A stretch of 64,000 bases of DNA, from sequence record PP400787; one strand, given 5' to 3'. This DNA is from Escherichia phage FL23. Each line of letters opens with the position of its first letter. The stretch's first letter is position 1. Positions 1,895 through 27,945 of this stretch are shown one piece after another. A program made the translations under genes and the position numbers. A model generated the notes under the pieces. That model ran no database searches. It was given only the letters and a program-made list of their open reading frames with translations, and was not told the DNA's origin.

Positions 1895-2230
1895 ATGTCT
1901 GAAGTACAACAGCTACCAATTCGTGCTGTCGGTGAATATGTTATTTTAGTTTCTGAACCTGCACAAGCCGGTGATGAAGAAGTTACAGAATCAGGACTTA
2001 TTATTGGTAAACGTGTTCAAGGTGAAGTTCCTGAACTGTGTGTAGTTCACTCTGTTGGTCCTGATGTTCCTGAAGGTTTCTGCGAAGTTGGTGATTTGAC
2101 TTCTCTTCCAGTTGGTCAAATTCGAAATGTTCCGCATCCTTTTGTAGCTCTGGGTCTTAAGCAGCCAAAAGAAATTAAACAAAAATTCGTTACCTGTCAC
2201 TATAAAGCTATTCCGTGTCTTTATAAGTGA
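1895..2230 (+). CDS. 31: co-chaperonin for GroEL (GroES-like), needed for major capsid protein folding
   Basis: 111 aa; sequence matches T4 gp31 as I recall it; preceded by a MotA-type middle promoter and AAGGAAA SD. Confidence 0.9.
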
Positions 2231-2238
2231 TATAAATA
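2231..2238 (+). promoter_or_regulatory. candidate late promoter (TATAAATA) between 31 and rIII
   Basis: Exact TATAAATA immediately after gene 31 stop; lies about 140 nt upstream of the rIII ATG. Confidence 0.35.
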
Positions 2239-2377
2239 ATAATATGAATTGGGTGTCGGAATAATAAGTTAACCGAACAATTCTATGTGGTAGTCTACAA
2301 CTGAGAGATCTGTCGAAAGAAGATGAAATTCAGAAGAACGTGACTACCGAGTTTTAATCTCTAACGAGAATTTTTAA

Positions 2378-2626
2378 ATGATTAAACAATTACAACACGC
2401 TCTTGAACTGCAACGAAACGCATGGAATAATGGTCACGAAAACTATGGCGCATCTATTGATGTTGAAGCCGAAGCTCTTGAAATCCTGCGTTATTTCAAA
2501 CATCTGAATCCTGCTCAAACTGCATTAGCTGCTGAGCTTCAGGAAAAAGATGAACTTAAATATGCTAAGCCTCTGGCTTCTGCTGCACGAAAAGCAGTTC
2601 GTCACTTTGTGGTAACACTGAAGTAA
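2378..2626 (+). CDS. rIII: lysis inhibition accessory protein rIII
   Basis: 82 aa; N-terminus and length match T4 rIII from memory; synteny between 31 and the 30.x genes. Confidence 0.8.
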   Translation: MIKQLQHALELQRNAWNNGHENYGASIDVEAEALEILRYFKHLNPAQTALAAELQEKDELKYAKPLASAARKAVRHFVVTLK

Positions 2627-2914
2627 TTTACTGGAGATTCACTGCCTTAGTGTGAGCTAAAATCGAGGAGCCGTCGAACTGTCTGATTAATGATTTGCGA
2701 ATCATTATAGTTTTAAGACCCCGGCAGTTTTACGGTGTACCTCTTGAATGTTACTATCATGCGTCAGAAAAGTGTTATCTGTGTAAGTCTTGGTGGTATG
2801 ATGACGAGGTTTATGGTTATCCTGTCGGTAAATATTCAAAACCTATGTTCCCCTTGAGGGCTTGCGCAGGCAATGCCAATAAGTCCTGCATTTTCATTTA
2901 AAAGAGAATTTATA

Positions 2915-3091
2915 ATGGCAAAACAAGCTAAAGCAAAGAAAGCAGTTGAAAAGAAAGTTGGTGATTCTAAACGCGCTGGCTACAAGCGTGGGTCGAACTC
3001 TCGTATCAATCAAACTGTTGAGAAGATCATGCGCCGAGCACGTGCGGTTCTTCGAGATGATGCTTCTCGTTTTGGTAAGCAGAAAGCATAA
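2915..3091 (+). CDS. small basic protein (30.9 position); alternative start 2873
   Basis: ORF ends at TAA 3089-3091 followed by a strong terminator; in-frame ATGs at 2873 and 2915; Lys/Arg-rich product MAKQAKAKK... Confidence 0.55.
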   Translation: MAKQAKAKKAVEKKVGDSKRAGYKRGSNSRINQTVEKIMRRARAVLRDDASRFGKQKA

Positions 3092-3095
3092 GTTG

Positions 3096-3121
3096 AGGAC
3101 TCCTTCGGGAGTCCTTTTTTA
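3096..3121 (+). terminator. rho-independent terminator
   Basis: AGGACTCC-TTCG-GGAGTCCT hairpin followed by TTTTTTATTTT. Confidence 0.75.
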
Positions 3122-3144
3122 TTTTCCAAAGATTGCATAAAGTT

Positions 3145-3187
3145 GTTTACAGTACGGTTCCTTTGTGATAGTATTATCTTACACAAA
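3145..3187 (+). promoter_or_regulatory. early promoter with stem-loop (PeSL-like)
   Basis: -35 GTTTAC (3145-3150), 18-nt spacer, extended -10 TGaTAGTAT; the -10 sits in the loop of inverted repeat TTTGTG/CACAAA. Confidence 0.55.
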
Positions 3188-3201
3188 CAAAGGAGAATAA
3201 A

Positions 3202-3534
3202 ATGAAAACGATTAATCTGAACGCTGCAGTTAAAACTAAATGCTTCAATGGTAAATATAATGAAACTATGTGGTTCTTAATGGCAGTTGAAGGTGATATT
3301 ATTGAAGTAGAAACAACAGAAGGTATGGGAACAGATTTCACCTTTACAATTCAAGTTCATAATTTCTTTACTGGTTGGATTTATGAATTGAATAAAGTAA
3401 TCGTTGGAAAAATTGAACAAAATGAATTAGGTGAATGGTATTATGTTACAGCTCGCCAACGTGCCGAACGCTTAATTGAGAAGATGAAAAAAGTTGGTAA
3501 ACTTGACATGCAGCATTGGAAAGTAGTAAAATAA
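3202..3534 (+). CDS. hypothetical early protein (30.8 position)
   Basis: AGGAGA SD then ATG; preceded by an early promoter with stem-loop. Confidence 0.7.
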   Translation: MKTINLNAAVKTKCFNGKYNETMWFLMAVEGDIIEVETTEGMGTDFTFTIQVHNFFTGWIYELNKVIVGKIEQNELGEWYYVTARQRAERLIEKMKKVGKLDMQHWKVVK

Positions 3535-3536
3535 TT

Positions 3537-3575
3537 GTTTACTTTTGTACAGGACATGATATTATATACCTGTAC
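3537..3575 (+). promoter_or_regulatory. early promoter with stem-loop (PeSL-like)
   Basis: -35 GTTTAC (3537-3542), -10 TGaTATTAT inside inverted repeat GTACAGG/CCTGTAC. Confidence 0.55.
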
Positions 3576-3601
3576 CGCAATTAAACATCTTGGAGAATAA
3601 A

Positions 3602-3967
3602 ATGAACTACATTAACTTTGAACGTAAATATGTTTCTAATGGTATTGCAGGTTCTATTGATACCATCTGCCTTTGGAAACATCAAAATGGATCAGTATGC
3701 GAAATCGAACAGTATATGACTCCTAACTACGTTTATATGCGATTTGAAAACGGTATCACGGTTTCAATCACGATGGAAGGTTCCAACTTTAAAATCGCTC
3801 TGGATGATGATTTCCGTCAACGTGATTTAGGGACTCATCCTTGCTGGAATGGTGCTAATCGTAAACTCTTAGTTAAAACTTGGATTCGTCATATTCTGAG
3901 TAACAAAGCTAAACCTGAGCACTTGGAAGCAATCTTTGATGTAGTTCTTAACGAATTTGATATTTAA
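3602..3967 (+). CDS. hypothetical early protein (30.7 position)
   Basis: Track start 3590 is TTG; the in-frame ATG at 3602 has a GGAGA SD. Confidence 0.7.
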   Translation: MNYINFERKYVSNGIAGSIDTICLWKHQNGSVCEIEQYMTPNYVYMRFENGITVSITMEGSNFKIALDDDFRQRDLGTHPCWNGANRKLLVKTWIRHILSNKAKPEHLEAIFDVVLNEFDI

Positions 3968-3976
3968 AATAAATGA

Positions 3977-3998
3977 GGGGCTTCGGCCCCTATTGAGG
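3977..3998 (+). terminator. GC hairpin with UUCG loop (weak terminator or RNA stabiliser)
   Basis: GGGGC-TTCG-GCCCC followed by TATTGAGG (poor U-run). Confidence 0.35.
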
Positions 3999-4006
3999 AA
4001 AATATT

Positions 4007-4294
4007 ATGTTTATGACTACTTATTTTGATACCCGCAAAAATTTCTGTGAAGTTGTTTTCTCAAAGGCACCTAAAGACCTTCCTGCACATTTGCAACCTA
4101 CTAGCGAATCGATTAAAAACTACGTTGATGTGGTTTGTCCTTTAGAGTTCCGTACTGTAAATGGGCGTGATACTTTAGCTATCACTAAACTCAATCGCGA
4201 AATTGACATTGACCCTTCAATTGCGCGCGAAATTAATATCTCTGATATTGGCGGCGGTAATGTTAAATCGCACGGTTTTCAGATGAGGTTCTAA
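4007..4294 (+). CDS. hypothetical protein (30.6 position)
   Basis: GAGGA SD, ATG; stop overlaps next start. Confidence 0.65.
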   Translation: MFMTTYFDTRKNFCEVVFSKAPKDLPAHLQPTSESIKNYVDVVCPLEFRTVNGRDTLAITKLNREIDIDPSIAREINISDIGGGNVKSHGFQMRF

Positions 4295-4491
4295 TGAAAT
4301 TCTTTTTAGGTCAAACTGTTGAATTAAAGGGAGTTGGTATACCTGGATTAATTTCTAAGGTTCTACCTCCATTTAAATGGAGTGGTATTCAAATAAAAGA
4401 GGCTTATATTGTTTCCTGGGTAGATGGAAATGAAGACCTTCGTATGGGTGATGAATTATCTCCTATCTACGGATTAAAGGAATTAGTATGA
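4294..4491 (+). CDS. hypothetical protein (30.5 position)
   Basis: TAATG start/stop overlap; 65 aa. Confidence 0.6.
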   Translation: MKFFLGQTVELKGVGIPGLISKVLPPFKWSGIQIKEAYIVSWVDGNEDLRMGDELSPIYGLKELV

Positions 4492-4694
4492 ATATAATTA
4501 ATAAGATTTTTGGAATTCAGTACATTAAGGTCACATATAAAGTAACAGATAAAAATCCATATACTGATGAACGTGAAGAACCACGAGTTGAGTCTATTAT
4601 ATTAGAAAAGGACCCTAACTGGCCAGTTGAATTTCGTCTACCAAACTATGGTCATTGGGCTGATGTTGAAATTATAAGCATTGAAAATGTCTGA
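4488..4694 (+). CDS. hypothetical protein (30.4 position)
   Basis: AAGGA SD; ATG overlapping previous stop; 68 aa. Confidence 0.6.
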   Translation: MNIINKIFGIQYIKVTYKVTDKNPYTDEREEPRVESIILEKDPNWPVEFRLPNYGHWADVEIISIENV

Positions 4695-5145
4695 GTTAGA
4701 GATTAGAAGCAATTTTAGGTGGCCATCATGTGCATTAAGTAATTTCGCCCATTGGCCTTTCGTTATGGATGGTATTCAATTTGGAGGTCTTGAAGGATTC
4801 CTCCAAGGATGCAAGGTGAAAAATGTTGAACAACAACGTCGTATATTTGGGTTATCCGGGCTTGCCGCCCAACAAGCTGGAAGGTCTTATGCAAGAGCTC
4901 AGGACCGCGGAACCCTCTTCTGGCTTGGAGTTCCATTTTCAAGATACTCCCCAGCGTGGAAAGAATTATACACAAATGCATATTTTGAAGCAGCGATCCA
5001 AAACAGAGGCTTTCGCGATGCATTACAAGCCTCGAAAGGAAAAGTTTTGAAGCACAGCATGGCTAGTGGTCTAACAAAAGATGATACAATACTAACCGAA
5101 GCTGAATTTATTGATGTGTTAAACCTATTAAGAGACTCTCTATGA
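4687..5145 (+). CDS. NADAR (YbiA-like, DUF1768) domain protein (30.3 position)
   Basis: Motif block SNFAHWPF-x3-DG...EGFLQGCK aligns with the YbiA/NADAR signature (SNFAAWP..DG...EHYFQAQK); track start 4681 is TTG, ATG at 4687; locally GC-rich coding sequence. Confidence 0.75.
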   Translation: MSELEIRSNFRWPSCALSNFAHWPFVMDGIQFGGLEGFLQGCKVKNVEQQRRIFGLSGLAAQQAGRSYARAQDRGTLFWLGVPFSRYSPAWKELYTNAYFEAAIQNRGFRDALQASKGKVLKHSMASGLTKDDTILTEAEFIDVLNLLRDSL

Positions 5146-5978
5146 AGCCTACTATTTTAACTGATATTGATGGAGTATGTTTAAGCTGGCAATCAGGCCT
5201 TCCTTATTTTGCTCAGAAATATAATCTTCCGTTAGAACATATTTTAAAAATGATCCAAGATGAAAAATTTATTTCTCCAGGTAAACTCTTTAACTGCGAT
5301 GAAGAACTTGGTGTCAAGTTAATTGAAAAATACAATCGTTCAGATTTTATTCGTTACTTGTCTCCATATAAAGATGCTCTGTGTGTAATTAACAAATTAA
5401 AAGAAGATTATAATTTTGTTGCTGTTACAGCATTGGGTGATTCTATTGACGCTCTGCTGAATCGTCAATTTAATTTGAATGCTCTTTTTCCTGGTGCCTT
5501 CTCAGAAGTAATGATGTGTGGTCACGATTCTTCAAAAGAAGAGTTGTTCAAAAAGGCAAAAGAGAAATATAACGTAATTTGTTATATCGACGATCTCGCT
5601 CACCACTGTGATCATGCGAGTGAAATATTAAGTGTTCCTGTTTATTGGATGGCTCGAGGGGAGCGTGACAATATTCCAAAAACTGCTCAGCGAGTTTATA
5701 CATGGAATGATGTAGAGAATAAGCTTTTTTCGCCGAAGGAAAATAAAGAAAGTTTTGATCGTGAAAAAGCTATAAAAGATGCAATCGAGAAGATGATTAA
5801 AAACGATTCTTTTCCTTGGAACACTACCTGGAGAACTCCTGGATTTAATCCTTATAATCTATATCATCCATATCAGACGCATCCGTTTCAGACATGGAAC
5901 TATATTAAACCCGGTGGCATAGAGTATTTGTATAATAGACCTACTTGTGGTGATAATATTTTCCAAGGAGCATTTTAA
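5142..5978 (+). CDS. HAD-superfamily phosphatase-like protein, 5'(3')-deoxyribonucleotidase-like (30.2 position)
   Basis: N-terminal HAD motif I ILTDIDGV (DxDG), candidate motif II AVTALGD and motif IV YIDDLAHH; ATGA coupling with upstream gene. Confidence 0.75.
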   Translation: MKPTILTDIDGVCLSWQSGLPYFAQKYNLPLEHILKMIQDEKFISPGKLFNCDEELGVKLIEKYNRSDFIRYLSPYKDALCVINKLKEDYNFVAVTALGDSIDALLNRQFNLNALFPGAFSEVMMCGHDSSKEELFKKAKEKYNVICYIDDLAHHCDHASEILSVPVYWMARGERDNIPKTAQRVYTWNDVENKLFSPKENKESFDREKAIKDAIEKMIKNDSFPWNTTWRTPGFNPYNLYHPYQTHPFQTWNYIKPGGIEYLYNRPTCGDNIFQGAF

Positions 5979-6247
5979 TGTTTGTTGTTCACACTATTTA
6001 TGAAAATGAAGGTAATACTACACGTGATTACGGTCACGTAAATCAATTTTTTAGATGCAATCCAGAATTCCGAGCTCAAAAAGACGAACGAATTTTTAAA
6101 AAATGCGTAGAGCAAGGTTTCATTTATATCAAGCACTGGATGCAAGGAAATAAAGTTAGAACCACATATCATAAGTCTTTGACTGAGCTTAATGATGAAT
6201 TGATTTATAATAGAGCTGTAAACCAAACTCTGAAGGATGAACAATGA
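5978..6247 (+). CDS. hypothetical protein (30.1 position)
   Basis: AAGGAG SD, TAATG overlap; stop overlaps ligase start. Confidence 0.65.
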   Translation: MFVVHTIYENEGNTTRDYGHVNQFFRCNPEFRAQKDERIFKKCVEQGFIYIKHWMQGNKVRTTYHKSLTELNDELIYNRAVNQTLKDEQ

Positions 6248-7707
6248 TTCTTAAAATTCTGAACGAAATAGCATCTATTGGTTCAACTAAGCAGAAGCAA
6301 GCAATTCTTGAAAAGAATAAAGATAATGAATTGCTTAAACGAGTATATCGTCTGACTTATTCTCGTGGGCTGCAGTATTATATCAAGAAATGGCCTAAAC
6401 CTGGTATTGCTACCCAGAGTTTTGGAATGTTGACTCTTACCGATATGCTTGACTTCATTGAATTCACATTAGCTACTCGGAAATTGACTGGAAATGCAGC
6501 AATTGAGGAATTAACTGGATATATCACCGATGGTAAAAAAGATGATGTTGAAGTTTTGCGTCGAGTGATGATGCGAGACCTTGAATGTGGTGCTTCAGTA
6601 TCTATTGCAAACAAAGTTTGGCCAGGTTTAATTCCTGAACAACCTCAAATGCTTGCAAGTTCTTATGATGAAAAAGGCATTAATAGGAATATCAAATTTC
6701 CAGCTTTTGCCCAGTTAAAAGCTGATGGAGCTCGGTGCTTTGCCGAAGTCAGAGGTGATGAATTAGATGATGTTCGTCTTTTATCACGAGCCGGTAATGA
6801 ATATCTAGGATTAGATCTTCTTAAGGAAGAATTAATCAAAATGACCGCTGAAGCTCGCCAGATTCATCCAGAAGGTGTGTTAATTGATGGCGAATTGGTA
6901 TACCATGAGCAAGTTAAAAAGGAGCCAGAAGGCCTAGATTTTCTTTTTGATGCTCATCCTGAAAACAGTAAAGTTAAAGACTTCACAGAAGTAGCTGAAT
7001 CACGTACTGCTTCTAATGGAATCGCTAATAAATCTTTAAAGGGAACCATTTCCGAAAAAGAAGCACAATGCATGAAGTTTCAGGTCTGGGATTATGTACC
7101 GTTGGTAGAAATATACGGTCTTCCTGCATTTCGTTTGAAATATGATGTACGTTTTTCTAAACTAGAACAAATGACATCTGGATATGATAAAGTAATTTTA
7201 ATTGAAAACCAGGTAGTAAATAACCTAGATGAAGCTAAGGTAATTTATAAAAAGTATATTGACCAAGGTCTTGAAGGTATTATTCTCAAAAATATCGATG
7301 GATTATGGGAAAATGCTCGTTCAAAAAATCTCTATAAATTTAAAGAAGTAATTGATGTTGATTTAAAAATTGTAGGAATTTATCCTCACCGTAAAGACCC
7401 TACTAAAGCAGGTGGATTTATTCTTGAGTCAGAGTGTGGAAAAATTAAAGTAAATGCTGGTTCAGGCTTAAAAGATAAAGCCGGTGTAAAATCACATGAA
7501 CTTGACCGTACTCGCATTATGGAAAACCAAAATTATTATATTGGAAAAATTCTAGAGTGCGAATGCAACGGTTGGTTAAAATCTGATGGCCGCACTGATT
7601 ACGTTAAATTATTTCTTCCGATTGCGATTCGTTTACGTGAAGATAAAACTAAAGCTAATACATTCGAAGATGTATTTGGTGATTTTCATGAGGTAACTGG
7701 TTTATGA
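6244..7707 (+). CDS. 30: ATP-dependent DNA ligase
   Basis: 487 aa; adenylation motif KADGAR (KxDG); N-terminus MILKILNEIASIGSTKQKQ matches T4 DNA ligase from memory. Confidence 0.95.
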   Translation: MILKILNEIASIGSTKQKQAILEKNKDNELLKRVYRLTYSRGLQYYIKKWPKPGIATQSFGMLTLTDMLDFIEFTLATRKLTGNAAIEELTGYITDGKKDDVEVLRRVMMRDLECGASVSIANKVWPGLIPEQPQMLASSYDEKGINRNIKFPAFAQLKADGARCFAEVRGDELDDVRLLSRAGNEYLGLDLLKEELIKMTAEARQIHPEGVLIDGELVYHEQVKKEPEGLDFLFDAHPENSKVKDFTEVAESRTASNGIANKSLKGTISEKEAQCMKFQVWDYVPLVEIYGLPAFRLKYDVRFSKLEQMTSGYDKVILIENQVVNNLDEAKVIYKKYIDQGLEGIILKNIDGLWENARSKNLYKFKEVIDVDLKIVGIYPHRKDPTKAGGFILESECGKIKVNAGSGLKDKAGVKSHELDRTRIMENQNYYIGKILECECNGWLKSDGRTDYVKLFLPIAIRLREDKTKANTFEDVFGDFHEVTGL

Positions 7708-7921: not shown

Positions 7922-7944
7922 GAATAAACACTAGAGAGGATATG

Positions 7945-10032
7945 ATGGAACTAATTACAGAATTATTTGACGAAGATACTACTCTTCCGATTACAAACTT
8001 AAATCCAAAGAAGAAAATACCACAAATTTTTTCAGTTCATGTTGATGATGCAATTGAACAACCAGGCTTTCGTTTATGTACCTATACATCTGGAGGTGAT
8101 ACTAATCGCGATTTAAAGATGGGCGATAAAATGATGCATATTGTTCCTTTTACATTAACTGCTAAAGGTTCAATTGCCAAATTAAAAGGTCTTGGTCCAA
8201 GCCCAATTAATTATATCAATTCAGTTTTTACTGTTGCAATGCAAACAATGCGTCAGTATAAAATTGATGCCTGCATGCTTCGTATTCTTAAGTCTAAAAC
8301 CGCTGGTCAAGCTCGACAAATTCAAGTTATTGCTGATAGACTTATCCGTAGTCGTTCAGGGGGCAGATACGTCCTTCTTAAGGAACTCTGGGATTATGAT
8401 AAAAAGTACGCATATATTCTTATACATCGCAAAAATGTATCACTGGAAGACATTCCGGGAGTTCCGGAAATTAGTACCGAGCTCTTTACTAAAGTTGAAT
8501 CGAAGGTCGGTGATGTTTATATCAATAAAGATACTGGAGCTCAAGTAACTAAAAATGAGGCAATTGCAGCATCTATTGCGCAAGAAAATGATAAACGTTC
8601 TGATCAAGCTGTAATCGTTAAAGTTAAAATTTCCCGTAGAGCAATTGCACAAAGCCAGTCATTGGAATCTTCTAGATTTGAAAGTGAATTATTCCAGAAG
8701 TATGAATCTACCGCAGCTAATTTCAATAAACCTGCTACCGCTCCTTTAATTCCCGAAGCAGAAGAAATGAAGCTTGGAATTAATTCATTAGCTTCTAAAA
8801 CTAAGGCAGCAAAAATTATTGCCGAAGGAACTGCGAATGAACTTCACTATGACTATAAATTCTTTTCAAAAAGTGAGGTTGATGAAGTTTCTGAAAAAAT
8901 TAAAGATGTAATTCTTAATGCGATTAAAAATGAACCAACTACTTCAATAAAATGTTTAGAGAAATACGCAGCAGCTGTTAATCAACTCTTTGAAGAATAT
9001 AAAGATAATTGGCTTGATAAACATAATAAAACTCGTAAAGGGCAGACAGATGAAGTCTGGGGAGAAATAACTAAAAATGCCTGGAATGCAGCAAAAACTA
9101 AATTCCTCAAACGAATGATTTATAGTTTTTCTGGAATTGGTGCAGGCCCAATGATTGATATTACTATTGCCCGTGATGGTTCTAAATATACTCCATCGCA
9201 AAAGCGCGGTATTAGAGAGTATTGTGGTTCAGGATATACAGACATTAATAATCTTCTTTTAGGTCGTTACAATCCAGAACGATATGATGTAATGAGTGAA
9301 AAAGAAATTGAATCTGCTATAAATAATTTAGATTCAGCTTTTGAAAATGGTGACCGCATACCGGAAGGCATTACAGTTTATCGTGCTCAAAGTATGACTG
9401 CTCCTATATACGAAGCACTAGTTAAAAATAAAGTGTTCTATTTCAGAAATTTTGTATCTACTTCTTTAACTCCTATCATTTTTGGACGTTTTGGAATTAC
9501 ACATGCTGGTATTGGTCTTTTAGAACCAGAAGCTCGTAATGAATTAACAGTTGATAAAAATGAAGAAGGAATAACTATTAATCCAAACGAAATAAGAGCG
9601 TATAAAGAAAATCCTGAATACGTTAAAGTTCAAATAGGATGGGCAATTGATGGAGCTCATAAAGTTAATGTTGTATATCCAGGAAGTCTCGGAATAGCAA
9701 CAGAAGCTGAAGTTATTCTACCGCGCGGACTGATGGTCAAAGTTAATAAAATAACTGATGCTTCTAATAATGACGGAACAACATCTAACAATACAAAACT
9801 CATTCAAGCTGAAGTTATGACCACAGAAGAACTCACCGAATCGGTAATCTATGACGGAGACCATTTAATGGAAACTGGTGAATTGGTTACAATGACAGGT
9901 GATATAGAAGATAGAGTTGACTTTGCATCATTTGTTTCATCAAATGTTAAACAGAAAGTAGAATCATCTCTTGGAATTATTGCGTCTTGCATAGATATTA
10001 CAAACATGCCTTACAAGTTCGTTCAAGGATAA
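7945..10032 (+). CDS. alt: Alt mono-ADP-ribosyltransferase (packaged, modifies host RNA polymerase)
   Basis: About 695 aa; ART catalytic triad elements R (YRAQS), STS (FVSTSLTP) and ExE (EAEVILPRG); late promoter TATAAATA at 7914-7921; GAGAGGA SD; ATG at 7942 is an alternative start. Confidence 0.88.
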   Translation: MELITELFDEDTTLPITNLNPKKKIPQIFSVHVDDAIEQPGFRLCTYTSGGDTNRDLKMGDKMMHIVPFTLTAKGSIAKLKGLGPSPINYINSVFTVAMQTMRQYKIDACMLRILKSKTAGQARQIQVIADRLIRSRSGGRYVLLKELWDYDKKYAYILIHRKNVSLEDIPGVPEISTELFTKVESKVGDVYINKDTGAQVTKNEAIAASIAQENDKRSDQAVIVKVKISRRAIAQSQSLESSRFESELFQKYESTAANFNKPATAPLIPEAEEMKLGINSLASKTKAAKIIAEGTANELHYDYKFFSKSEVDEVSEKIKDVILNAIKNEPTTSIKCLEKYAAAVNQLFEEYKDNWLDKHNKTRKGQTDEVWGEITKNAWNAAKTKFLKRMIYSFSGIGAGPMIDITIARDGSKYTPSQKRGIREYCGSGYTDINNLLLGRYNPERYDVMSEKEIESAINNLDSAFENGDRIPEGITVYRAQSMTAPIYEALVKNKVFYFRNFVSTSLTPIIFGRFGITHAGIGLLEPEARNELTVDKNEEGITINPNEIRAYKENPEYVKVQIGWAIDGAHKVNVVYPGSLGIATEAEVILPRGLMVKVNKITDASNNDGTTSNNTKLIQAEVMTTEELTESVIYDGDHLMETGELVTMTGDIEDRVDFASFVSSNVKQKVESSLGIIASCIDITNMPYKFVQG

Positions 10033-10035
10033 ATC

Positions 10036-10422
10036 ATGGAACTTATTACAGAATTATTTGACGGCGCTTCGGCGCCGGTTGTTAACTTAAATCCTAAGCA
10101 TAAAATACCACAAATTTTTGCTATCCAAGCCGGCGAAGAAAGCGTGCTTCCTGGATTTAGATTTTGTACATATACCTCTGGTGGTGATACAAATAAAAAC
10201 GTTAAGCCAGGCGATAAAATGATGCATATCGTAATGATAGGCGTCAACGAGAAATTATCGCTGGTTAAGCTTAGAAACTTGGGTGGAAATCCAATTGGCG
10301 TCATTAATGCGGTTTTTGATACTGCTCTTCAAACAATGAAGCAGTATAAAATTGACGCATGCCTATTCCGCGTACTAAAAAGTTCAAAATGTAGTTTACA
10401 AGTCCCTCGTGTTGTGTTATAG
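10036..10422 (+). CDS. Alt N-terminal-domain paralog, 128 aa (alt.-x-like)
   Basis: N-terminal ~110 aa closely parallel the Alt N-terminus (MELITELFD...NLNPK.KIPQIF...PGFR.CTYTSGGDTN...GDKMMHIV...YKIDAC); no ART motifs; AAGGA SD. Confidence 0.65.
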   Translation: MELITELFDGASAPVVNLNPKHKIPQIFAIQAGEESVLPGFRFCTYTSGGDTNKNVKPGDKMMHIVMIGVNEKLSLVKLRNLGGNPIGVINAVFDTALQTMKQYKIDACLFRVLKSSKCSLQVPRVVL

Positions 10423-26379: not shown

Positions 26380-27945
26380 TTAGATACCTTTAACATATAC
26401 ACGTCTAAAGTAAGCGTTCTTACCAAGGCTATTCAGAATAGAAGGCATACCGCTCTGGATGCGAGAAGCCGGAGCCTGAGCAGCGGATTCTGCAAATGGG
26501 TTGATACCGATACCGTAACGAGTTTTGAATCCCATTACCGGTTGGAAGTTCTTCGGATCGGAACCACGCAGCGGAGTCAGAGCTACATATGGAGCATAGT
26601 AAATACCAGCATCCATTTCGTTAGGACCTTTATAACCTACAGTGAAATAATCCTGTTTAGCATACTGGTCGATATATACACGGTATTTACCACCCAGAAC
26701 ACCAGCAAATACTGACTTGGTAGTATCAGTGTTAAAGCCAGTAGCCAGACCTTGTGCAGCATAAGAAATGCCGGTATCAACTGAAGCCAGAACGTTAACT
26801 ACGTTACGGGAAGCGATAATGAAGTTACCTTCGCCGCGACCAGTCTGACGAGCAATTTCAACTGCTTCTTTGTCAATCTGGAACAACAGAGCTTTAAAGG
26901 ATTCACCTGCCCAGCGAGCACCACGAATATCGATTGGGTCCTGGAAGTCAAATACACCAGCTTTAGAACCCGGAGTCAGGGTCATACCAGATTTACCAAC
27001 CTGAGCGGAGTAGTTAATCCAATCAACAACTTCGCGGTTGATTTCCAGCATAATTTCGGTAGCCAGAATACCAGACAGTTCAGCATCAGCATCCATACCG
27101 TGAACAGCGCGAAGGTCTTGTGCTAATTCAATAGAGTAAGCAGCTTTCAGCTGACGAGATTTAGCTTCGATAACTTGCTTATCGATACGGAAGCCCATTT
27201 CATTCCATGGGTTATCGGTAGAACCATTGAAACCTTCCTGGAGTTCAGCGATAGAAGTAGCCATACCTTCAGCGATTTCTACCAGTACACCAGCTTCCAT
27301 TTGTTTCTTAATTTCAGCATCTAATTTAGCTGCGTCAGATGCACTAGTATCAATTTGCTTAACTTCTGTAGCTTGCAGATATACAGTACCAGTGTCCTGG
27401 AAGAAGTGGGTGTAAATAGTTCCAACTTCAAGAGTATCACTTGCTTTCAAAGCAGCGAATTTCTTAGCAGCACCCTGACCAGAGAACATTGCATCTGGAC
27501 CATACATTGGGTGGAATGCTTCTTTAGCACCGGCAGCGATCGGATCTTTACCATATACCGCGCGGAGTGCGAATACCTGACCGGTTGGGCTGTTCATCGG
27601 CTGAACACCACAAATATCGAAAGCAATCAGGTTAGGAATAGCACGACGTACCATACCCATAACAGCCGGGCCAATCTGGGTTACTGCGCCAGAAGTCTGA
27701 CCTGCAGCGATGTTGGTAGCATTGTAACCGTGGTCACCACCAATTTCAGCTTCTGTTAAGAAAGAACCGAATGCCTGAGCAATTTTTTCGTCTTTATATT
27801 CCGGAGCTGTCTGGAAATCTTTTTCCTGGTTTTCAAAGATTTTAGCGATAATCGCTTGTTTGCTATTAGCAATTTCCGGTAAACCTTCACCTTCCAGTAA
27901 TGGCTTCCATTTGTTCAAAAGTTCAGCTTTAGTTTTGATAGTCAT
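26380..27945 (-). CDS. 23: major capsid protein gp23
   Basis: 521 aa as in T4 gp23; N-terminal propeptide then capsid domain; highly expressed-type codon usage. Confidence 0.95.
   Translation of the reverse strand: MTIKTKAELLNKWKPLLEGEGLPEIANSKQAIIAKIFENQEKDFQTAPEYKDEKIAQAFGSFLTEAEIGGDHGYNATNIAAGQTSGAVTQIGPAVMGMVRRAIPNLIAFDICGVQPMNSPTGQVFALRAVYGKDPIAAGAKEAFHPMYGPDAMFSGQGAAKKFAALKASDTLEVGTIYTHFFQDTGTVYLQATEVKQIDTSASDAAKLDAEIKKQMEAGVLVEIAEGMATSIAELQEGFNGSTDNPWNEMGFRIDKQVIEAKSRQLKAAYSIELAQDLRAVHGMDADAELSGILATEIMLEINREVVDWINYSAQVGKSGMTLTPGSKAGVFDFQDPIDIRGARWAGESFKALLFQIDKEAVEIARQTGRGEGNFIIASRNVVNVLASVDTGISYAAQGLATGFNTDTTKSVFAGVLGGKYRVYIDQYAKQDYFTVGYKGPNEMDAGIYYAPYVALTPLRGSDPKNFQPVMGFKTRYGIGINPFAESAAQAPASRIQSGMPSILNSLGKNAYFRRVYVKGI

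Follow-up and report, generated by a model that had tools for sequence, protein, structure and literature searches.

The window, that is the whole 64,000-nucleotide stretch of DNA that was analysed, is assigned to Tequatrovirus (T4-like phage). Over 4000-6300 it matches Escherichia phage FL44 at 100% identity and several hundred T-even genomes at 95-99%. From position 1 the genes run cd.2, cd.1, cd, 31.2, 31.1, 31, rIII and 30.9 down to 30.1, followed by 30 (DNA ligase, 6244-7707), alt.1 and alt (7942-10032; PF03496, E = 1.7e-37), which is the order of the T4 reference on the opposite strand. Alt is located near ligase, as stated in the first-pass annotation, being the second gene after it with alt.1 intervening. 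A partial duplicate of the alt N-terminus is found at 10036-10422 (+) as one uninterrupted 128-aa ORF, and the same duplicate is split by a frameshift into alt.-1 and alt.-2 in T4. The window ORF is uninterrupted because its A-run is one base longer than that of T4 (aataaaaacg vs aat-aaaacg), and it looks like the unsplit form of the alt duplicate.

The gene of interest, T4 gene 30.3 or adfN, lies between 30.4 and 30.2 (Table 1). The earliest possible start is a TTG at 4681; the ATG at 4687 yields the 152-aa product and agrees with gene 30.3 as annotated in T4 (459 nt). The product has the same length as T4 gp30.3 and is identical to it in 149 of 152 residues (98%), the substitutions from T4 to the window being Q22H, K107R and I125M. 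Judged from the sequence, the window ORF is the ortholog of T4 gene 30.3/adfN. The two genes differ at 14 nucleotides, 10 of them synonymous, which indicates that the reading frame is under purifying selection. M125 is also found in RB69, JS98 and the consensus of the Phage_30_3 family, and Q22H falls within a conserved SNFA(x)WPF motif at a position that varies between H, Q, K, P, Y, G, A and R in the alignment rows shown. Since the 30.4 stop and the adfN start overlap, the two genes may be co-transcribed and translationally coupled.

Homologs of gp30.3 were found by tblastn in 1510 phage records, mostly Straboviridae. Together with the Pfam match given below, this places the reading frame well beyond chance. 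Two records labelled as Pseudomonas phages, PV654520.1 (vB_PSGBLB0006, 142 kb) and OR584013.1 (PsgM02F, 165 kb), carry a gp30.3 that is 100% and 96.7% identical to that of the window, respectively. Such values are typical of E. coli Tequatroviruses, and the host label or isolate purity of both records may merit a check.

Table 1. Coordinates of adfN and associated features in the window
Feature	Position	Strand	Remarks
adfN (T4 gene 30.3) CDS	4687..5145	+	stand-alone phage-type NADAR domain, 152 aa
30.4 stop / adfN start overlap (ATGTCTGA)	4687..4694	+	read from sequence
E36 codon GAA, catalytic glutamate	4792..4794	+	invariant in the family alignment; equals PnNADAR E43 and E. coli C7 NADAR E88
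K43 codon AAG, phosphate-coordinating lysine	4813..4815	+	equals PnNADAR K50 and E. coli C7 NADAR K95
30.3', 75-aa ORF inside adfN, +1 frame	4823..5050	+	annotated in T4 (own RBS in X53848)
H123 codon CAC, last-strand histidine	5053..5055	+	invariant in the family alignment; beside model strand 120-122
Equivalent of T4 middle promoter PM30.2 (drives 30.2), inside adfN 3' part	5065..5090	+	X53848 553-578, by offset
C-terminal alpha-helix, residues 138-151, intact	5098..5139	+	AF2 model helix H138-151
adfN stop / 30.2 start overlap, ATGA	5142..5145	+	read from sequence; identical arrangement in T4
Gene 30.2, 278 aa	5142-5978	+	product begins MKPTILTDIDGVCLSW

Two further elements are embedded in adfN. 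The frame of 30.3' is open in the window but contains stop codons in RB69 and JS98. Compared with T4 it carries 10 nucleotide changes, of which 8 are synonymous in adfN, and these give 9 amino-acid differences in 30.3'. A real overlapping gene was rejected because of these stop codons and because every substitution relative to T4 alters the protein; 30.3' is most likely a chance ORF and not a conserved protein. The second element is the putative middle promoter of 30.2, and a -10-like TACAAT is present at its predicted position (5085-5090). The nucleotide change behind I125M (5059-5061; T4 ATTGCTAG, window ATGGCTAG) lies a few bases upstream of the PM30.2 interval and converts TTGCTA of T4 to TGGCTA in the window, a sequence that is a candidate MotA box and may affect expression of 30.2. 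The window G at this site is shared with RB69 and JS98, T4 being the odd one out. A scan of 2200-6400 for sigma-70 promoters and terminators gave counts equal to the shuffled expectation, with nothing specific upstream of adfN.

The first-pass annotation had identified the product as a NADAR domain protein, quoting a signature that is indeed present at residues 18-43 (SNFAHWPFVMDGIQFGGLEGFLQGCK) and comparing it with a YbiA stretch (SNFAAWPIKVDG...EHYFQAQK) that is genuine E. coli K-12 YbiA sequence. At the level of the single sequence, gp30.3 belongs to Pfam PF08010 Phage_30_3 (E = 1.7e-69, 232.4 bits at a cut-off of 36, model positions 1-138 of 138), and direct hmmscan gave no match to PF08719 (NADAR) even at E<=10, the only matches being Phage_30_3 and a chance DUF724. 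Likewise, a single-sequence phmmer search of gp30.3 against the PDB returned one insignificant match (E = 0.58), and PADLOC and NCBIfam returned nothing for gp30.3.

The relationship becomes apparent at the level of the family. In hhalign, the alignment of 49 Phage_30_3 homologs matches E. coli YbiA with a probability of 94.3% and E = 1.1e-7 over 91 columns, pairing gp30.3 E36 and K43 with YbiA E48 and K55. When the profile of the same alignment was run by hmmsearch against all PDB sequences, the sole credible match was YbiA (2b3w, E = 0.0023). PF08719 is matched individually by 7 of the 49 family members (best E = 1.5e-7), one homolog (P0073) matches both PF08010 and PF08719, and several homologs of about 40% identity have been named 'YbiA (DUF1768 family)' by JGI. 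The AF2 model of gp30.3 (mean pLDDT 94.2, pTM 0.89) has the YbiA fold, with a helical core flanked by small beta-sheets, and Foldseek with this model gave 2b3w, 8bat and 8bau as the top three matches, the remainder being noise. Comparison of the predicted structure with YbiA and NADAR structures, which had been suggested as a check, thus bears out the assignment.

From the profile, the PF08719-matching members and the fold, Phage_30_3 is a divergent NADAR subfamily. The failure of gp30.3 to match PF08719 is then attributable to the divergence of the subfamily and does not speak against its place in the NADAR superfamily. The earlier annotation had named a missing Pfam NADAR/DUF1768 hit as an argument against its own reading; the direct hit is indeed missing, but that argument is overturned by the profile and fold evidence. 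The domain assignment itself holds, since NADAR structures alone match the predicted fold, the profile links the family to YbiA and PF08719, and conservation extends to the catalytic residues.

The E-x-[FY]-x-Q-x-x-K motif, which contains the catalytic Glu and the phosphate-binding Lys, is present in gp30.3, and K43 is conserved in at least 90% of the 49 aligned homologs. The importance of these residues is known from mutants: T4 AdfN E36A is inactive in vitro and gives partial rescue in vivo, K43A gives partial rescue only (PMC11825919), and E. coli C7 NADAR requires K95 (PMC11543638). A histidine in the last strand is the signature of phage NADARs of the gp30.3 type, while the position is occupied by Glu in YbiA-type and by Asp in DarG1-type proteins (PMC11125620, PMC11543638, PMC12945103).

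The identity of this last-strand residue bears on whether gp30.3 could be a YbiA-type metabolic N-glycosidase, whose substrates would be small molecules instead of DNA adducts, for instance intermediates of the riboflavin pathway or soluble immune signals derived from ADP-ribose. YbiA, which is annotated as an N-glycosidase, is the best match of the phage protein both at sequence level and in Foldseek. However, the Glu that defines the YbiA family gives way to the invariant H123, the phage proteins reportedly cluster nearest to DarG1-type NADARs and not with the YbiA clade (PMC11825919), and DNA de-ADP-ribosylation together with a DarTG1-specific phenotype has been directly shown for T4 AdfN (PMC11825919; HIDEN-SEQ preprint). 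A metabolic enzyme of this kind is therefore very improbable as the identity of gp30.3, which may still have a secondary small-molecule activity.

The C-terminus of the protein deserves separate attention. In RB69 an additional T at gene position 411 of 30.3 (corresponding to window 5097) gives a 137-aa protein that has lost the C-terminal helix, and a T4 allele truncated in the RB69 manner has reduced activity (PMC11825919). [quoted passage not shown] In the alignment this T is absent from the window, T4, JS98 and phage 04086, and the window ORF ends ...TEAEFIDVLNLLRDSL as in T4. Many Tequatrovirus-like contigs have shortened 30.3 products of 83-126 aa (P0004-P0007, P0013-P0018, P0020, P0037, P0086), some of which also match PF06919 Gp30.7, PF11097, PF06019 or PF26911. 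These products suggest that adfN may be disrupted repeatedly by deletion or recombination within the 30.x block, which, if true, would give rise to DarTG1-sensitive phages like RB69.

An inactive or decaying allele in the window, resembling that of RB69 and leaving the phage sensitive to DarTG1, might be imagined from such shortened or rearranged 30.3 genes in other Tequatroviruses and from the three residues by which the window allele departs from T4. It is nevertheless extremely unlikely, as the ORF is of full length without a frameshift, all catalytic residues are intact, the nucleotide differences are predominantly synonymous (10/14), and Q22H, K107R and I125M are conservative or at variable positions. 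We infer that the three substitutions leave function unchanged.

The function of the T4 ortholog is well documented. NADARs in phages were recognised bioinformatically by de Souza and Aravind in 2012 and by Schuller et al. in 2023 (PMC11543638), and the DarTG1 resistance of T-even phages was mapped to gene 30.3, renamed adfN, by Johannesman et al. (Nat Commun 2025, PMC11825919). Plaquing of T4 or T2 on DarTG1 hosts is abolished without adfN, and RB69 supplied with ectopic adfN forms plaques again on such hosts (PMC11825919). Purified T4 AdfN strips ADP-ribose from DarT1-modified DNA and the E36A variant does not; no AdfN-DarT1 binding was seen in a two-hybrid assay, and DarTG2 was unaffected by AdfN (PMC11825919).

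An independent study found that the T4 NADAR hydrolyses guanine-ADPr in vitro and does not reverse thymidine-ADPr (Toxins 2024, PMC11125620), and C-ADPr (cytidine) is not removed either (PMC12945103). The methods of the Toxins study give the T4 construct as 'gp30.3; residues 1-208', at variance with the 152 aa of T4 gp30.3, and the discrepancy could reflect tag residues, a different homolog or a typographical error (PMC11125620). In a transposon experiment, insertions in 30.3/adfN were lost specifically on DarTG1 hosts, the gene being dispensable on K-12 lacking DarTG1 (HIDEN-SEQ preprint, 2025). These reports describe AdfN as a guanine-specific DNA ADP-ribosylglycohydrolase that is necessary and sufficient for the DarTG1 resistance of T-even phages (PMC11825919; PMC11125620; HIDEN-SEQ preprint).

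Gene identity and fold are established in the window itself, as are the intact catalytic residues and the intact C-terminus, and with the 98% identity to T4 these lead us to predict the function of T4 AdfN for the window gene with high confidence. It is very probable, with a probability that we put at about 0.93, that the window gene is adfN, coding for a stand-alone phage-type NADAR enzyme that would counter DarTG1 by the AdfN mechanism. The first-pass suggestion of a counter-defence against DarT-type toxins is consequently well founded, having been demonstrated for the 98%-identical T4 AdfN (PMC11825919; PMC11125620; HIDEN-SEQ preprint). The anti-DarTG1 function is already known, having been published for the T4 ortholog in 2023-2025, and the finding is not new.

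In the mechanism envisaged for the window phage, expression of adfN from the cd-to-ligase block would fall in the early or middle period. Upon infection the host DarTG1 system would release DarT1, which would ADP-ribosylate guanines of single-stranded phage DNA and thereby block replication. AdfN, through E36, K43 and H123 in its YbiA-type fold, is predicted to hydrolyse the N-glycosidic bond that joins ADP-ribose to guanine N2, so that the phage DNA would be cleared and replication could continue. The target of AdfN would accordingly be the lesion and not the toxin, and the enzyme would be specific for guanine adducts, leaving the thymidine adducts of DarT2 and cytidine adducts untouched.

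The proximity of alt has led to a different suggestion, namely that AdfN erases or tunes the phage's own ADP-ribosylation by removing the arginine ADP-ribose which Alt, ModA and ModB put on host proteins. In the window alt lies about 2.8 kb downstream of adfN in the same transcriptional direction, and the two genes are also close in T4, RB69 and the Morganella and Acinetobacter phages. The bond between ribose and the arginine guanidino group and that between ribose and guanine N2 are both N-glycosidic. Co-expression of T4-like NADARs with early ARTs has been noted by Iyer et al. 2022.

Nonetheless, neither alt nor ligase occurs within at least 3 kb of the homolog in Klebsiella JD18, Vibrio D491s, Aeromonas avDM6, Ralstonia RSP15 and a metagenomic jumbo-phage contig (L003), which indicates that the linkage of adfN with alt is synteny and not a conserved functional pairing. 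In addition, the T4 NADAR activities measured were all on guanine-ADPr in DNA or RNA (PMC11825919; PMC11125620; PMC12945103), and the adfN deletion phenotype is fully explained by DarTG1, the gene being dispensable on K-12 without it. The available text of the AdfN/NADAR literature reports no test of a phage NADAR on arginine-ADPr. An action of AdfN on protein-linked ADP-ribose thus appears highly unlikely. The earlier proposal of a regulator of Alt-driven ADP-ribosylation finds no support, the adjacency belonging to the T4-type gene order that is lost in Jiaodavirus, Vibrio, Aeromonas and Ralstonia phages. The neighbourhood of P0073, the distant homolog with matches to both Pfam families, consists of many small unannotated ORFs with no conserved ART or DarT partner.

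Removal of guanine adducts by AdfN, although the preferred reading, may not be the whole of the resistance. Uninfected E. coli is not rescued from DarT1 by T4 AdfN, and phages other than T-even are rescued weakly (PMC11825919; PMC11125620). This suggests that an additional T-even factor or context is involved, and a picture in which the enzyme alone clears the DNA would then be incomplete. The adjacent gp30.2, whose gene begins in the ATGA that also holds the adfN stop, could be considered as such a factor. It contains a HAD-phosphatase-like motif I, DxDG (ILTDIDGV), with a YIDD motif further on, and in phage HY01 the gene adjoining 30.3, probably the 30.2 homolog, was annotated as a haloacid dehalogenase-like hydrolase by one depositor. 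Searches with gp30.2 gave no matches in Pfam (E<=10), NCBIfam, PADLOC or PDB sequences, and gp30.4 gave nothing in PADLOC.

Gene 30.2 adjoins adfN in Tequatrovirus, Mosigvirus, Dhakavirus, Gualtarvirus and one Acinetobacter phage, and the pairing is missing in Jiaodavirus, Vibrio, Aeromonas and Ralstonia phages. The homologs in JS98 and the Morganella phage are shorter (212-214 aa), the C-terminal ~60 aa being variable. A role of gp30.2 as conserved functional partner was rejected, as the two genes co-occur only where T4 gene order is retained in full, and five more distant loci have no 30.2 within 3 kb. On this comparison of loci, it is improbable that gp30.2 is the T-even factor potentiating AdfN.

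It had also been proposed that the coding sequence is more GC-rich than its neighbours and that this points to horizontal acquisition. The first part is correct, the adfN ORF having 42.3% GC compared with 31.9% for 30.4, 34.5% for 30.2 and 36.0% for the window, but the excess is modest. The gene ranks second among 80 ORFs (z about +1.8; GC3 0.33, mean 0.24), and an equal or higher GC content is seen in 5.5% of all 459-nt segments. Stretches as GC-rich as adfN or more so occur at twelve other places in the window and are therefore not peculiar to this gene; the most GC-rich ORF is one of 521 aa at 26380-27945 (-) with 44.6%.

In nine other phage lineages the GC of the adfN homolog minus the local GC ranges from -0.035 to +0.023, and in a Morganella phage (Gualtarvirus) and an Acinetobacter phage homologs with ~45% protein identity occupy the same slot (cd-31-rIII-...-30.3-30.2-ligase-alt). 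With a modest z, orthologs without an excess and a conserved slot, the GC content is a weak sign of horizontal acquisition. A recent transfer was rejected on the z of about 1.8, the 12 equally GC-rich stretches, the GC of the orthologs and the synteny. The conserved slot, the spread in Straboviridae and the ortholog GC indicate instead that adfN has long been resident in the T4 superfamily. The literature proposes that a DarG1-like NADAR was captured from bacteria in the distant past, and this is plausible.

It is useful to compare the window gene with known systems. T4 AdfN has the same flanking genes 30.4 and 30.2 with overlapping start and stop signals and the same E36, K43, H123 and C-terminal helix, and differs by the three residues Q22H, K107R and I125M. 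DarG1 is the NADAR antitoxin of DarTG1 (E. coli C7; G. lovleyi, PDB 8BAT), whereas the phage gene is an orphan without an adjoining darT. The neighbours of adfN in the window, 30.4 and 30.2, gave no ART, DarT or PADLOC matches, and the arrangement is not that of a DarT1 operon. The sole ART near adfN is Alt, an exotoxin-type ART (PF03496) that modifies RNA polymerase according to the T4 record. DarG1 has 219 aa with an N-terminal extension, while the phage protein of 152 aa consists of the core domain only (PMC12945103). Furthermore, the catalytic Asp of DarG1 is His at the equivalent position of the phage protein (PMC11125620, PMC11543638), and T4 AdfN cannot substitute for DarG1 in uninfected cells (PMC11825919).

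YbiA (PDB 2B3W), an N-glycosidase of riboflavin intermediates, has the SNFAxWP...DG...E..FQ..K motif in common with gp30.3 at an identity of about 17-24%, but carries Glu where the phage protein has His. It has a housekeeping role, with dinG and ybiB as chromosomal neighbours, and does not protect against DarT1 in vivo (PMC11125620). AdfN(Bas32) and AdfN(Bas60) of T5-like phages and Vequintavirinae likewise reverse the guanine ADP-ribosylation by DarT1 and are inactive against DarTG2; they fall into different NADAR clades and go back to separate acquisitions (PMC11825919). These two proteins work in uninfected cells and in unrelated phages, in contrast to the T4-type AdfN, which requires a T-even context (PMC11825919). 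Other anti-DarTG factors of T-even phages are AdfM (T4 Tk.4), which has a macrodomain fold and is proposed to erase an adduct, that of DarT2 on thymidine (HIDEN-SEQ preprint), and AdfA (T4 61.2-type), which has no enzymatic activity and blocks DarT by binding (PMC11825919; HIDEN-SEQ preprint). Neither the AdfM nor the AdfA gene is in the adfN part of the window.

For annotation, the value of this assignment is that a 'hypothetical protein' at 4687-5145 can be named adfN (DNA (guanine) ADP-ribosylglycohydrolase, anti-DarTG1), and the window phage is predicted to be DarTG1-resistant. AdfN would represent an enzymatic counter-defence that erases the DNA lesion rather than blocking the toxin, and it is probably descended from a bacterial antitoxin.
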